This document shows positions 48,394 to 64,000 of a DNA stretch of 64,000 nt, one piece after another (position 1 is the stretch's first letter; the number at the start of each line of letters is the position of its first letter). The position numbers and the translations under genes were made by a program. The DNA comes from Gammaproteobacteria bacterium (GTDB lineage Bacteria > Pseudomonadota > Gammaproteobacteria > DSM-16500). The notes beneath the pieces are model-generated. The model was not told where the DNA came from. It ran no database searches and was given only the letters and a program-made list of their open reading frames with translations. The stretch covers positions 42,633 through 106,632 of the forward strand of contig JAJPGW010000004.1 of assembly GCA_021325575.1 (NCBI GenBank), given 5' to 3'.

Positions 48394-48430
48394 ATCGGGG
48401 TGACCTGGACTATGGTCGCAACCATGGGCC
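48394..48430. repeat. degenerate copy of the 3' end of the tRNA at 63964 (att-like direct repeat)
   Basis: 48394 ATCGGGGTGAC(C)TGGA.. versus 63963 ATCGGGGTGAC-TGGA.. . The blocks TCG, AACCA and GGCC follow in the same order. Confidence 0.55.
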
Positions 48431-48480
48431 AATCAACTCGCCCATGACAATCTATACACCTGACAAATATTAAACTGATA

Positions 48481-49290
48481 TTAAATCTGACCTGCTACTT
48501 GGCAGCTTGCATAAAATCCCGCAATTTGTGCGTCGTCATTTACTATTTTTTCAAGTTCGATTCCTTGATTAACCCATTCTATTTCAGTCTTTCCTTGTTC
48601 TAATTCGTATTGTTTAAGCTCCTCTCTACCTAGGAGTAATAGATTTTTTTCATCACGCGTTATTAATAACGGATGTATAATTTTTGCAGAAATGATCTTA
48701 AAACTTGCTTTATACATTTTATTATATAATTTCATTCCTAAATTGCCATCACGCATATTTTGTTCTTCGTTATCAATCCAAGGATATGGTCCAGTGTATT
48801 CTGTTCCCCAAGCTGGGTTATGTGGGTAAGAAAATGCAAAATTGACAATACCTTCCTCTGCTGCATAAATTCCATTAGGTTTAAGCACGCGGATGATTTT
48901 TTTGATAACTTGAGAGGGTGAATTAAGATGGTGTAATACAAAACGACAATACACCATATCAAATCTTTGATTAAGTGTCTCAATATCATAAGCAGATAAC
49001 AACTTAAATTCGATGTTGTTCAACCCCATTTTTTTAGCGCGAAGCATTGCAGCGTTTAATTGATTTTTATTATTCTCAATGGCAATAACAGATCCATTAT
49101 TACCGACTTGTTTCGCTATCCAACAAGTCATGGCGCCTGACCCGCATCCTATATCTAATACGATCATGCCAGATTTTAATCCGCTACAAATTAAAAATTC
49201 TTGCGTTGTTGGATTAAAACAATAGTCTAATTTATCTAGTCCAATGGAGCCTTCGTCACCAACGTCAACAATATATTTTTCATTTGGCAT
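48481..49290 (-). CDS. class I SAM-dependent methyltransferase
   Basis: Motif I VLDIGCGSGAMT, post-I IAIE, motif II FDMVYCRFVLHHL. Confidence 0.8.
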   Translation of the reverse strand: MPNEKYIVDVGDEGSIGLDKLDYCFNPTTQEFLICSGLKSGMIVLDIGCGSGAMTCWIAKQVGNNGSVIAIENNKNQLNAAMLRAKKMGLNNIEFKLLSAYDIETLNQRFDMVYCRFVLHHLNSPSQVIKKIIRVLKPNGIYAAEEGIVNFAFSYPHNPAWGTEYTGPYPWIDNEEQNMRDGNLGMKLYNKMYKASFKIISAKIIHPLLITRDEKNLLLLGREELKQYELEQGKTEIEWVNQGIELEKIVNDDAQIAGFYASCQVAGQI

Positions 49291-49414
49291 ATGTATCTCT
49301 ATAAATTATTACTATTGGATGGTTTAGTATCGCATTTTTTTAAAAGATCCACATCATAGTAATAGGTAAAATTATTTTGATGTTACATTCTTGAAATCGA
49401 TAAAGTATCAATGA

Positions 49415-49436
49415 AATACCGTATTAACACGGTATT
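49415..49436. promoter_or_regulatory. 22-bp dyad operator, site 1 (perfect)
   Basis: AATACCGT-ATTAAC-ACGGTATT, in the divergent intergenic region. It is 51 nt upstream of the ATG at 49487. Confidence 0.6.
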
Positions 49437-49486
49437 GCTCCATTCGGCTGAATAAGTGATAATTATTGCAGTGATTGGAGAGAAAT

Positions 49487-49882
49487 ATGCGTTTATTAAA
49501 ATATGTAATTATTATAATGGCTAGCATGATTTTTATGTCATCTATAAGTTTTGCAGAAACTAATACCAAACAAAATCATGCACCGGTTGTTTTTCAAGTT
49601 GTTCAAGCTCAAATAAATTTTGATAATTCTATGATTAAAAATGCTTCATTTATTACAAATAATGATGGGTCCTTCGGTGGTCTTGAGATACAGTTAAAAC
49701 CATCTGCTTCTAAAGAACTAACTCGTATTACAGCAGCTGGAGTTGGTAAAGAGGCAAATCTTGTGATCAACGATAAAATCGTTAGCAGAGCCACTTTGCG
49801 TTCATCGTTGCAGGATCAATTTCTAATAACTGATATATCAAAAGAGGATGCTCAAAAATTTATTGATTCGTTGCATGAATAA
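49487..49882 (+). CDS. small secreted protein
   Basis: GGAGA Shine-Dalgarno then ATG at 49487. Signal peptide MRLLKYVIIIMASMIFMSSISFA. Confidence 0.55.
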   Translation: MRLLKYVIIIMASMIFMSSISFAETNTKQNHAPVVFQVVQAQINFDNSMIKNASFITNNDGSFGGLEIQLKPSASKELTRITAAGVGKEANLVINDKIVSRATLRSSLQDQFLITDISKEDAQKFIDSLHE

Positions 49883-49902
49883 TATTTTTATGCAAATTTG
49901 AA

Positions 49903-61310: not shown

Positions 61311-61319
61311 ATTACCTCT

Positions 61320-62336
61320 ATGAATGAAAATACCGAACGCTTTACTACAGCTGTTTTAGCAAAAAATATCCTTGACGCCAAGCGGCCCTCTTTTTTAGCA
61401 TCCTATATCAGAATAGTTCAAGCTCGACGCTTATTAGAACTTATTTTTAGCATGTTAGTCATCTTTGGTGGGCAACAATTTCTATTTCAGCATGCATTTT
61501 TTTCGCCAATTTGGCCCGCCACCGGGGTCGCTCTTGCAGCTATTTTTTTAAGAGGCAACTTCTTGTTGCTAGGGATATTCCTCGGATCCTTCACAAATTA
61601 TTGGTACAACCATTTTCCCTTATTAATGGCTTTTGCACAAAGTTTCATTTGGTTAGTGATAGTTTATTTTACTCGATTGATTTGTTTGCAAATGATTGGA
61701 CCCATTAGTCCACTGCCGCGTGTTTCTATCTTAATGAAGTGGTTTCTGGTGATTTTTGTTATGTGTGGGCTCCATACAGTGATCTTTTTTGCATTATTAT
61801 TTAAATGGTTTCCATGGTCCTGGAATTATTTTTTCTTAGGATGGGTAGGCCAAATAAATGGGATTTTGTGCCTTGTTCCTCTTTCTCTGGTCTTCGAACC
61901 TTTTGTGCCGCAGCATTTTTTCAATCAAAATAACCGTTCATGGCGTATTTGGGGTTTGCTTTTTATATTAGGAAATTTTTTATATTTTTTGATACCTCCT
62001 GGTGCGGCATTAATCAGTTTAAGTGTGCTCTTTTCGTTGCTTATTTGTTATTATGCTTTTTGTTTTGGTCAAATCCCAACCTGCATCACACTATTTGGCT
62101 TGAGTATTATTTACTTGGGAAGTATTAGCGGACCTTTAGCCCTTTTTCATCCTGATCTGCCTTTATATCAAACTTACTTACTTTCCATTCTGTTAATGCT
62201 TGCTAGTCTGATAAGCCTTATCATTGCAACTTATTCACAAGAAAAATATTATTCTAAAATTGAAGCGATTGACACTAATGCAATTCGCAGCATATACACT
62301 CCTGGGACAATTTATAAAAAAAGTAACTCATCATGA
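61320..62336 (+). CDS. MASE1-like integral membrane sensor domain protein lacking any output domain
   Basis: About 8 TM helices. SPIWPATGVALAAIFLRG..LLLGIFLGSF resembles the MASE1 signature. The ORF stops about 20 codons after the last helix. Confidence 0.5.
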   Translation: MNENTERFTTAVLAKNILDAKRPSFLASYIRIVQARRLLELIFSMLVIFGGQQFLFQHAFFSPIWPATGVALAAIFLRGNFLLLGIFLGSFTNYWYNHFPLLMAFAQSFIWLVIVYFTRLICLQMIGPISPLPRVSILMKWFLVIFVMCGLHTVIFFALLFKWFPWSWNYFFLGWVGQINGILCLVPLSLVFEPFVPQHFFNQNNRSWRIWGLLFILGNFLYFLIPPGAALISLSVLFSLLICYYAFCFGQIPTCITLFGLSIIYLGSISGPLALFHPDLPLYQTYLLSILLMLASLISLIIATYSQEKYYSKIEAIDTNAIRSIYTPGTIYKKSNSS

Positions 62337-62928
62337 TCCTGAATTCGAAGTTGAGCAACGGATATTTAAAAAACTTGGCATGAATCACAGTTATTTTCCT
62401 AAAGATAAATTGTATATGGTTCCAGGCATTGATCAGTATGCAATTGTAAATACCTATTCGTATTATCCTAAAAAAGGATTTAAACAATATCCTTTTATTC
62501 ATGAGGGAGAAGAGCTCAGTCGTTGGTCAATGTCTTGGGTTAATGTGGCCGGTGCTATTGCATCAACCCCAGGTGATATTAACATTTATGTACATGCACT
62601 TTATAATCCAGGCCCATTACTAAATTCATCGCAAATTGAAGAACTAACAAAGACAATATCCAAACTAAGTGGACAACCTTTAGTATTAAAAAAAGGAATT
62701 AAAGAATTTGGTTTTGGTTTCTCAGTTGTCGCGTTCTATTGGCCTAAAGTAAATCATGTCATTTATATGTATAATGGCAGCACAAATGGCGGGACATTTA
62801 ATTATATGTATGATCCTGCATCGCAACTATATTTAAGTTATGCAGTAAATGTTAATCCAGCAGCAGACATAGTAAACTTTAATAATAGTCTTGCTTTATT
62901 TGCTGATTTGATCGAACAGTGTAAATAA
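62278..62928 (+). pseudogene. C-terminal remnant of a serine hydrolase (class C beta-lactamase/PBP family)
   Basis: AAYTLLGQFIKKVTHHDPEFEVEQRIFKKLGMNHSYF and ..YNGSTNGGTFNYMYDP....L.YAVNVN match the middle and C-terminal blocks. The SxxK and YxN motifs are absent. Overlaps the end of the MASE1 ORF in another frame. Confidence 0.6.
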
Positions 62929-62965
62929 AATAATGCAGCTTCACATTTTTCTTTCTATCTAAAAA

Positions 62966-63832
62966 TTATTTCAACCAGTGTAGTAATTCCGCATCAAATT
63001 TTTCTGGTTCTTCATAAGGCGGGGTATGGCCGCTTTTTTCAAAAATTCGCATGGTTAAATTTTTAAAATGATGGCGAATGCGGTCCCATGAATAAAATGG
63101 TGCGACAATAAAATCATACAAACCCAGCCCAACAAAAACGGGCTTATCCAATTTATCTAATTCTTTTGTAATGTCTATATCACGGAAAATTTCTCCCCAG
63201 ACATAACCAAACATGGGCATATTCATTCGCGCATCATCCCAAAGTGCAGTCGCATCAAAGTTAAAATCAAACCAAGCGCGTGGACCGTTGGCGACGTATT
63301 GCTGAATGAACTGTTGATCGGGTGGTAAGCCAACCAATTTTTTATCAAGTGAATGAAGATTTGAATCTAACTTATTTTTTCTTTCTGTGGAAACTAATTC
63401 TTGCCAATATCGATCTGCTGCCTTTTGTGAAGCGGCGCTTAGATCGGGTGCCATACCAATCATGACGACATGAGATACATTTTCAGGATATTTTTTAGCA
63501 TATTCTAATGCCATAAACGCGTGACCAGAATGGCCAATCACAATGATTTTGCCGAGGTTTAATTGCTTGCGTGTTAATTCCATATCATCAAGAATAAGAT
63601 CCAATGTATATTCATTCCTGTTTGTTACATCATATGGTTCGGCAAAAATACGATGGTCCACAAAAACCAACCGTAAATGTTTGCGCAATCTTTTAGAAAA
63701 AATACGTGGATAATAATAAGAGCTACCAATGACAACTGCATTTTGGCCATCACCTTCGATGGCGTAACGTAAATTAAATTTTCCTGAATTGATTCGGCCT
63801 GTTTTGGTTTGCATGTGGATTTTCTCCTTCAT
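62966..63832 (-). CDS. alpha/beta hydrolase (proline iminopeptidase-like)
   Basis: Nucleophile elbow GHSGHAF and C-terminal SGHTPPYEEPE.F. Confidence 0.75.
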   Translation of the reverse strand: MKEKIHMQTKTGRINSGKFNLRYAIEGDGQNAVVIGSSYYYPRIFSKRLRKHLRLVFVDHRIFAEPYDVTNRNEYTLDLILDDMELTRKQLNLGKIIVIGHSGHAFMALEYAKKYPENVSHVVMIGMAPDLSAASQKAADRYWQELVSTERKNKLDSNLHSLDKKLVGLPPDQQFIQQYVANGPRAWFDFNFDATALWDDARMNMPMFGYVWGEIFRDIDITKELDKLDKPVFVGLGLYDFIVAPFYSWDRIRHHFKNLTMRIFEKSGHTPPYEEPEKFDAELLHWLK

Positions 63833-63963
63833 TTATTATCACTGCGGACTGCATTCTAGTGATCTAGGAATATAAGACATTTGACTTTACACGCATCTAG
63901 CACATTTGCATCTCAGAATTTTATCGCGTTTATGCGATGTTTATAAGCGATTGACCTAATTGA

Positions 63964-64000
63964 TCGGGGTGACTGGATTCGAACCAGCGGCCCCTGCCTC
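63964..64000 (-). tRNA. partial tRNA (3' portion only; truncated by the window edge)
   Basis: The reverse complement reads ..GCTGGTTCGAATCCAGT CACCCCG A: a T-arm with the TTCGAAT loop, a 7-nt acceptor 3' strand and a discriminator. The anticodon lies outside the window, and CCA is apparently not encoded. Confidence 0.65.

Follow-up and report, generated by a model that had tools for sequence, protein, structure and literature searches.

Does the AT-rich DNA beside a proline tRNA gene at the end of the stretch analyzed here represent a genomic island that entered at this tRNA, and where does such an island end? The stretch comprises 64,000 nucleotides (nt) and is called the window below (G000:C3:42633-106632). 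It belongs to G000, a 2.41-Mb genome in 13 contigs from an uncultured member of the Coxiellaceae; the nearest named records are uncultured Coxiellaceae and Gammaproteobacteria metagenome-assembled genomes. A first description made from the letters alone (the sequence-only reading) had proposed that positions 48394-63963 form a single 15.6-kb island bounded by the tRNA and by a degenerate copy of the tRNA 3' end at 48394. Our analysis shows that this block is real accessory DNA, that it represents the part nearest the tRNA (15.6 kb) of an AT-rich fill of 22.4 kb (41563-63963), and that the filled spacer, between tRNA-Pro(CGG) and a conserved parB gene, is an insertion slot found across the family.

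A family-wide insertion slot between tRNA-Pro(CGG) and parB

The slot and the left part of its fill are defined by the following features:

40762..41562, minus strand: orphan parB (Pfam ParB_N, HTH_ParB, ParB_C), the conserved left flank of the slot
41652..46970, plus strand: three orphan open reading frames (ORFs) of 607, 422 and 494 amino acids (aa), no Pfam match
47279..48385, plus strand: relic of yhcG (DUF1016/PDDEXK nuclease; Pfam YhcG_C and DUF1016_N)
48394..48430: candidate eroded attachment (att) scar, matching the final ~31 nt of the tRNA and 1 nt more
63964..64000 (gene to 64037, past the window), minus strand: tRNA-Pro(CGG), with its 3' 37 nt in the window (ARAGORN, run on the contig)

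The sequence-only reading had noticed a partial tRNA at the edge, with its 3' end toward the block. Extension past the window recovered the full gene (63964-64037, minus strand), which is the sole CGG isoacceptor of G000 and does point into the block. Beyond it lie the housekeeping genes for a polyprenyl synthetase (ispB-like), rplU, rpmA, obg, rpsT, murJ and ribF, and no integrase was found among these genes. The tRNA is the right boundary of the block and likely its integration target.

The block is compositionally foreign. It has 33.4% G+C versus a genome mean of 40.4%, which is the 1.4th percentile among 5-kb windows; only one low-G+C tract of G000 is larger, and its tetranucleotide distance, that of the block, lies at the 99.3rd percentile. 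The earlier impression that it is richer in AT than the backbone was therefore correct, and its composition does not resemble that of the backbone. The largest low-G+C tract of G000 lies outside the window (G000:C9:90001-112500; 22.5 kb, 32.6% G+C), has the most deviant tetranucleotide usage and may be another island.

The proposed left end did not hold. Likelihood segmentation of the G+C content of 30-76 kb yielded two change-points only, one at 42010, just past parB, and one at 63960, within 4 nt of the tRNA end. The interval between them (42010-63959) is one 22-kb segment, whose best internal split is at 46.7 kb and not at 48.4 kb; splitting at 48394 gives 36.2% vs 33.4% G+C, a modest internal step. 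The segment 41600-48393 (36.4% G+C) is accessory as well, AT-rich non-syntenic DNA starts at about 42.0 kb, directly past parB, and the backbone restarts only at parB (41562). The DNA inserted relative to the backbone is 41563-63963 and not 48394-63963.

The positions of the parB orthologue and of tRNA-Pro(CGG) were taken in each of 86 family genomes. ParB matches at E <= 1e-60 were found in 75 of them, the orthologues being 65-78% identical; a second ParB paralogue, 44% identical, is encoded on G000 contig C5. Both genes lay on one contig in 40 genomes, and in 39 of these 40 (12 genera) the tRNA 3' end is followed by the parB start on the same strand. The spacer ranges from 31 bp to 58.7 kb, apart from a single case of 219 kb, and its median is 6.3 kb:

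up to 250 bp (observed 31-188 bp): 10 genomes
250 bp to 1 kb: 2 genomes
1-5 kb: 5 genomes
5-20 kb: 13 genomes
20-60 kb: 8 genomes (G000 has 22.4 kb)
219 kb: 1 genome

Given this spacer length in G000 and the conserved tRNA-Pro and parB flanks, the 15.6-kb block is the tRNA-proximal part of a 22.4-kb fill.

In ten relatives the slot is essentially empty (tRNA-Pro, 31-190 bp, parB), as expected from the proposed insertion at the tRNA 3' end. The compact state is exemplified by G008, where ispB, tRNA-Pro, 32 bp and parB (L057 5959-6846) are followed by homologues of window genes 36650-38071 and 35177-36637. These empty sites represent the whole tRNA-parB interval: an intact empty site exists for the 22.4 kb as a whole, and none was found among relatives exactly at 48394/63963, that is, for the 48.4-63.9 kb block as first delimited. 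Between filled genomes the spacer contents are unrelated, and none of the neighbouring ORFs of G001, G007, G014, G017 and G018 is matched in the G000 block. A DNA search of 31 relatives did not find the whole block elsewhere and yielded scattered single-gene matches only; no relative carries it in a non-tRNA context.

The genes next to tRNA-Pro in relatives encode AbiE pairs, a DUF4143 ATPase, a KAP NTPase, a histidine kinase, ankyrin proteins and IS66/IS3 transposases, besides orphan ORFs. AbiEi/AbiEii toxin-antitoxin pairs stand directly beside tRNA-Pro(CGG) in two genera, G007 (L011 10138-14056) and G014 (L023 9526-11579), the latter also having the KAP NTPase; the slot thus carries defence-type cargo in some relatives. 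In G078 (L088) an ankyrin protein is encoded right beside tRNA-Pro, and in G006:C9 (L016 13399-16019) ankyrin-repeat and F-box-like proteins are encoded between parB and the amidotransferase gene. Such proteins are eukaryote-like cargo typical of Legionellales. In G000 the interval between the amidotransferase gene and parB (40586-40749) contains nested inverted repeats rich in G+C, with arms of 34 nt (91% complementary) and 31 nt (90% complementary).

Could the block nevertheless be native, that is, a rapidly evolving cluster of accessory or effector genes that expanded on the spot through duplication and divergence and was not acquired horizontally? Relaxed selection, which commonly acts on the host-interaction genes of intracellular bacteria, would then account for its AT-richness. 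Homologues of the LuxR subfamily, beta-lactamase, GNAT, PNPOx and hydrolase genes are all present in the family, and a paralogue of the beta-lactamase gene (bla), 54% identical, lies on G000 contig C4, as such an origin would predict. It is hard to reconcile with the empty spacer in ten relatives, with the unrelated content of filled spacers, with the absence of the block at the same position in G001, and with a right G+C boundary as sharp as the one at the tRNA end, and we consider it very improbable.

The left part of the fill was compared mainly with G001, the sister species and the sole same-genus genome compared (84% complete; core proteins ~76-85% identical to those of G000); an ispB query against genome and metagenome contigs retrieved no relative nearer than 76% identity. 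The order in G001 is parB, yhcG and then at least 20 kb of genes that G000 lacks; between parB and yhcG, G001 has none of the three orphan ORFs (41.65-47.0 kb). The three genomes with yhcG at the tRNA-Pro/parB locus, G000, G001 and G007 (L012 5370-6446; L014 10593-11412), all have a broken copy; in G000 an A7 run separates the frame of its ATG (47279) from the conserved one. At the DNA level yhcG is 77% identical between G000 and G007, which belongs to a different genus. This exceeds the identity of core genes, as the ispB protein is only 64% identical. In G007 yhcG lies ~15.3 kb from tRNA-Pro and is convergent with it, and the intervening genes are wholly different from those of G000.

These observations raise the possibility that yhcG is the terminal gene of a mobile unit and that the left end of the latest island lies upstream of it, at about 47.2 kb. 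The high yhcG identity, its similar distance from tRNA-Pro (~15 kb) and convergent orientation in both G000 and G007, and the best internal G+C split at 46.7 kb would agree with such an end. Homology among the three genomes, however, ends at the yhcG coding sequence on both sides, with no conserved sequence found 3' of the gene; no tRNA-like repeat was found near 47.2 kb, nor a second scar near parB (about 41.6 kb); and in G001 yhcG stands beside parB. We regard this as the least probable of the readings considered, and even jointly with a native cluster it remains improbable.

Scars at the tRNA and the repeat at 48394

True scars at this tRNA were found in two relatives. In G018 (G018:C15:56000-75999, 9849-11614) a 43/43-nt repeat, consisting of the last 34 nt of the tRNA and 9 further nt, bounds a 1.1-kb insert: tRNA-Pro is followed by the insert with two small ORFs (one weakly similar to nucleotidyltransferases, NTases), the repeat, a second full tRNA-Pro and the DUF4143 ATPase gene. 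The parB gene of G018 is a pseudogene with four in-frame stops. In G056 (G056:C3:662100-682099) a 44-nt repeat of the tRNA-Pro 3' end, with 97.7% identity, lies 11.1 kb into a 22.5-kb tRNA-parB spacer and is thus internal to the fill, as the copy at 48394 would be. The tRNA-proximal fill of G056 contains IS66 and IS3 (rve) transposases and no tyrosine integrase. These two repeats show that tRNA-Pro(CGG) is a real integration target in the family. Seventeen of the 18 further filled spacers examined have no detectable tRNA-end repeat.

The letters reported at 48394 are present, and the 11-mer shared with the tRNA end (ATCGGGGTGAC) has no occurrence in the 2.41-Mb genome besides those at 48394 and 63963. 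The copy starts 9 nt past the yhcG stop, within the 95-bp spacer where synteny with G001 ends, yhcG being the last gene common to both. The exact 11-mer is followed by 2 mismatches and about 4 small insertions; the most economical alignment (GGCC..TGGTT / TCCAG(G)TCACCCCGAT) covers ~31 nt of the tRNA. When gapped scoring was applied given the anchor, the next 20-30 nt were more tRNA-like than random genome segments (p = 0.0006-0.012 depending on the scheme). With a 41-nt tRNA-end query and tRNAs masked, 48394 was the best locus in 4.8 Mb when permissive gaps were allowed, and ranked 3rd, 7th and 11th in three stricter schemes. As a control, 34 G000 tRNAs were treated alike (60 kb downstream, direct orientation, three scoring schemes), and tRNA-Pro(CGG) was at the top in two schemes (23 vs <=19; 95 vs <=88).

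On balance, we slightly favor a history of serial insertion at the tRNA 3' end by site-specific recombination, and consider it somewhat probable that 48394-48430 is the eroded att scar of the latest integration. The older fill with the orphan ORFs and the yhcG relic (36% G+C) would have come first and the 15.6-kb block (33% G+C) later, its distal junction keeping the final ~31 nt of the tRNA in eroded form. The repeat, if real, is an internal junction of a serially filled slot. The recombinase gene would subsequently have been lost; with this gene gone and no tyrosine recombinase above the Pfam threshold in G000, the block would now be fixed.

Several observations weigh against this history. 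In BLAST-like scoring the match at 48394 comprises 16 columns with 1 gap and 22 bits, which corresponds to E = 98 genome-wide (114-nt query) and to E = 0.9 for the 26-kb region searched, which contains a better-scoring unrelated match at 62263; in a BLAST-like search with the tRNA and its flanks it ranks about 74th-106th genome-wide. In the BLAST-like scheme of the control, tRNA-Pro(CGG) is tied second, four control tRNAs being as good or better. Past 16 nt the alignment needs ~4 insertions and 2 mismatches, so that the copy is far more eroded than the scars of G018 and G056, and it forms part of two hairpins between convergent genes, which have their own rationale. A scar beside yhcG was not found in G001 or G007, where scores were at background. 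Accretion at the tRNA alone cannot account for the orphan ORFs that lie between parB and yhcG. Elsewhere the cargo genes are not found as a group, their homologues being scattered in relatives. Finally, an integrase beside tRNA-Pro was found in none of ~14 relatives examined, though their genomes contain 2-33 tyrosine integrases elsewhere; we therefore infer integrase-mediated entry from the scars only.

The significance of the repeat thus depends on the scoring scheme and is borderline: alignment to the full tRNA is non-significant in one scheme and significant in others. BLAST-like scoring alone would suggest chance; gapped scoring and the 34-tRNA control moved the verdict to borderline. The best match of the copy to the tRNA allele of its own genus was not used, since the query is that allele and the argument is circular. 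The classical attL/attR signature claimed in the sequence-only reading is favored by the gapped match, which is the top one genome-wide (with permissive gaps) and among the 34 tRNAs (in two schemes), and is disfavored by the chance level of the match in BLAST-like scoring and by its being much weaker than true scars.

A serious, though less probable, alternative is that the tRNA-Pro-parB spacer is a recombination hotspot filled piecemeal without tRNA-targeted integration, for example by homologous exchange via the conserved flanks, by capture mediated by insertion sequences (IS) or by illegitimate recombination, so that the similarity at 48394 would be due to chance and mark no real boundary. 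This is what the single 22-kb G+C segment, with its best split away from 48.4 kb, and the chance-level BLAST-like statistics would lead one to expect; the lack of tRNA-end repeats in 17 of 18 further filled spacers, the lack of an integrase in all spacers examined, the IS66 and IS3 transposases in the G056 fill and the scattered cargo homologues fit it as well. It leaves unexplained why the gapped match scores best both genome-wide and among 34 control tRNAs, why 48394 falls in the one 95-bp spacer that ends G001 synteny, and why fills always begin exactly at the tRNA 3' end, with two relatives showing perfect scars there.

Genes and regulation of the 48.4-63.9 kb block

The block contains the following features:

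48481..49290, minus strand: class I S-adenosylmethionine methyltransferase (Pfam Methyltransf_31/25/11)
49417..58502, promoter regions: dyad TACCGT-N6-ACGGTA, five copies
49475-49882, plus strand: small SecDF-P1-head-like protein (domain match)
49903-51054, plus strand: membrane acyltransferase of the Acyl_transf_3 family (domain match)
51106..52029, minus strand: GNAT acetyltransferase, 307 aa (Pfam Acetyltransf_9)
51980..52874, minus strand: class A beta-lactamase, bla (NCBIfam bla_class_A, 307 bits, cut-off 200)
53024-53809 and 53806-54552, minus strand: tandem LuxR/GerE-type regulators (Pfam GerE)
54785-55189, plus strand: cytochrome c
55248-55829, plus strand: PNPOx-like flavoprotein
55997-56338, minus strand: cupin
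56374-57297, minus strand: LCM/TIGR00027-type O-methyltransferase (Pfam/NCBIfam)
57415-57933, plus strand: second GNAT (Pfam/NCBIfam)
57969..60616: segment with a 151-aa ORF of no assigned function (minus strand), a 63-aa ORF and the JmjC and NTase genes
58876-59844, plus strand: JmjC/cupin-4 oxygenase
59810-60616, plus strand: Pol-beta-type NTase
60690..61310, minus strand: DOT1-like methyltransferase (Pfam DOT1, 63 bits)
61320-62336, plus strand: membrane sensor domain without output module (remnant)
62224-62928, plus strand: serine hydrolase remnant (Beta-lactamase profile positions 147-317 of 329 only)
62966..63832, minus strand: alpha/beta hydrolase, with a 131-bp spacer to the tRNA

Searches with Pfam and NCBIfam confirmed the cargo listed in the sequence-only reading: the LuxR pair, three methyltransferases, two GNATs, the beta-lactamase, JmjC, NTase and DOT1-like genes, and remnants. 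The first GNAT (51106..52029) has a 68.6% identical homologue in G001, located on another contig, and the alpha/beta hydrolase gene has a homologue in G018 (73% identical at the DNA level) at another locus.

The gene slot beside the tRNA, here occupied by the alpha/beta hydrolase, is the usual place of an integrase. No recombinase, integrase or transposase domain was found by Pfam in any ORF tested in 40-64 kb, in agreement with the reported lack of integrase and transposase ORFs. Across G000, PF00589 (Phage_integrase) produced nothing above the Pfam cut-off and one 23-bit match (C12:38366-38908); a Xer-type recombinase was likewise not picked up by this search. Frameshifted or truncated cargo, which had also been reported, was found: the signal-peptide frame of bla is split from the enzyme frame at an A8 run (52772-52779), the sensor has no output module, and the serine hydrolase remnant lacks the N-terminal ~145 profile positions. 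As there is no recombinase and some genes look decayed, the label 'old and immobilised' is reasonable. Both verified frameshifts, that of yhcG (A7, about 47290) and that of bla (A8), sit in poly-A runs, so that they could reflect decay, slippage or homopolymer assembly error; a survey of frame breaks at homopolymers across the genome did not separate the three, being confounded by the overlaps that normally occur between genes.

Much of the block may act as one regulatory unit. Three copies of the dyad are perfect (49417-49434, 57355-57372 and 58485-58502) and lie in divergent promoter regions, the LCM-type methyltransferase and the second GNAT diverging from one of them; no other perfect copy exists in the 2.41-Mb genome. 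Two half-degenerate copies (52948-52965 and 54715-54732) are located on either side of the LuxR pair. The dyads are candidate operators of this pair. The same dyad adjoins the closest LuxR homologues in other genera (G006, with two perfect copies, G077 and G047), and the LuxR subfamily was found in 65 of the 86 family genomes; 49.4-60.6 kb therefore looks like one regulon built of family-typical parts, which would be controlled by its own LuxR pair through a genome-unique operator.

One may speculate further that the slot is a dedicated integrase-free cargo slot of Coxiellaceae, refilled repeatedly via a recombinase acting in trans or by an undescribed mechanism, and that in G000 it houses a self-contained module in which the LuxR pair with its private operator governs eukaryote-like enzymes that modify proteins (DOT1-like, JmjC, LCM-type and GNAT) and are directed at the host cell. 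We think this rather unlikely.

Comparison with known systems

With this locus, one clear insertion slot has been mapped in a family of uncultured, intracellular relatives of Coxiella and Legionella. Its precise flanks make lineage-specific accessory genes and candidate host-interaction genes easy to harvest from metagenome-assembled genomes. The locus also shows by example just how weak a putative att repeat may be, the scars of G018 and G056 serving as a yardstick at the same place. The more unusual content of the block comprises the LuxR pair with its candidate genome-unique operator and the DOT1-like and JmjC genes.

Within the same order, the Legionella islands LGI-1, LGI-2 and related ones are similar in that hypervariable regions lie at tRNA 3' ends, tRNA-Pro included, with tRNA-end repeats at the junctions and with acetyltransferases and regulators among the cargo (PMC3864950). 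Their direct repeats consist of the last 37-48 bp of the tRNA with 0-10 mismatches, and several repeats mark several insertions; these islands keep integrases and type IV secretion genes and can excise (PMC3864950). The G000 block, in contrast, has no integrase and no transfer genes, and its only repeat is an 11-nt exact core in a heavily gapped ~31-nt match.

The scars of G018 and G056 at the same locus resemble the G000 situation in that a tRNA-end repeat lies inside the tRNA-parB spacer with no tyrosine integrase nearby. They differ in the quality of the repeats (43-44 nt at 98-100% identity) and in the cargo, a small NTase-like pair in G018 and IS66/IS3 transposases in G056.

Integrase-less 'anchored' remnants of tRNA islands are blocks of foreign composition that have become fixed next to a tRNA and contain decayed genes and, at the distal end, a degenerate repeat. 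The G000 block resembles them, although the repeat on which its membership in this class depends is statistically borderline.

Horizontal gene transfer is also known to concentrate at chromosomal hotspots flanked by conserved core genes. The slot is like them in having tRNA-Pro and parB as flanks in 12 genera, in spacers that range from 31 bp to 59 kb and whose contents are unrelated, and in that mobility genes are mostly lacking. It is unlike them in that the fills begin exactly at the tRNA 3' end and that two relatives have perfect att-type repeats, which points to site-specific entry for at least some of the fill events. The G000 block is a tRNA-adjacent, integrase-less genomic island in a family-wide hotspot and, as such, an island of an ordinary kind.

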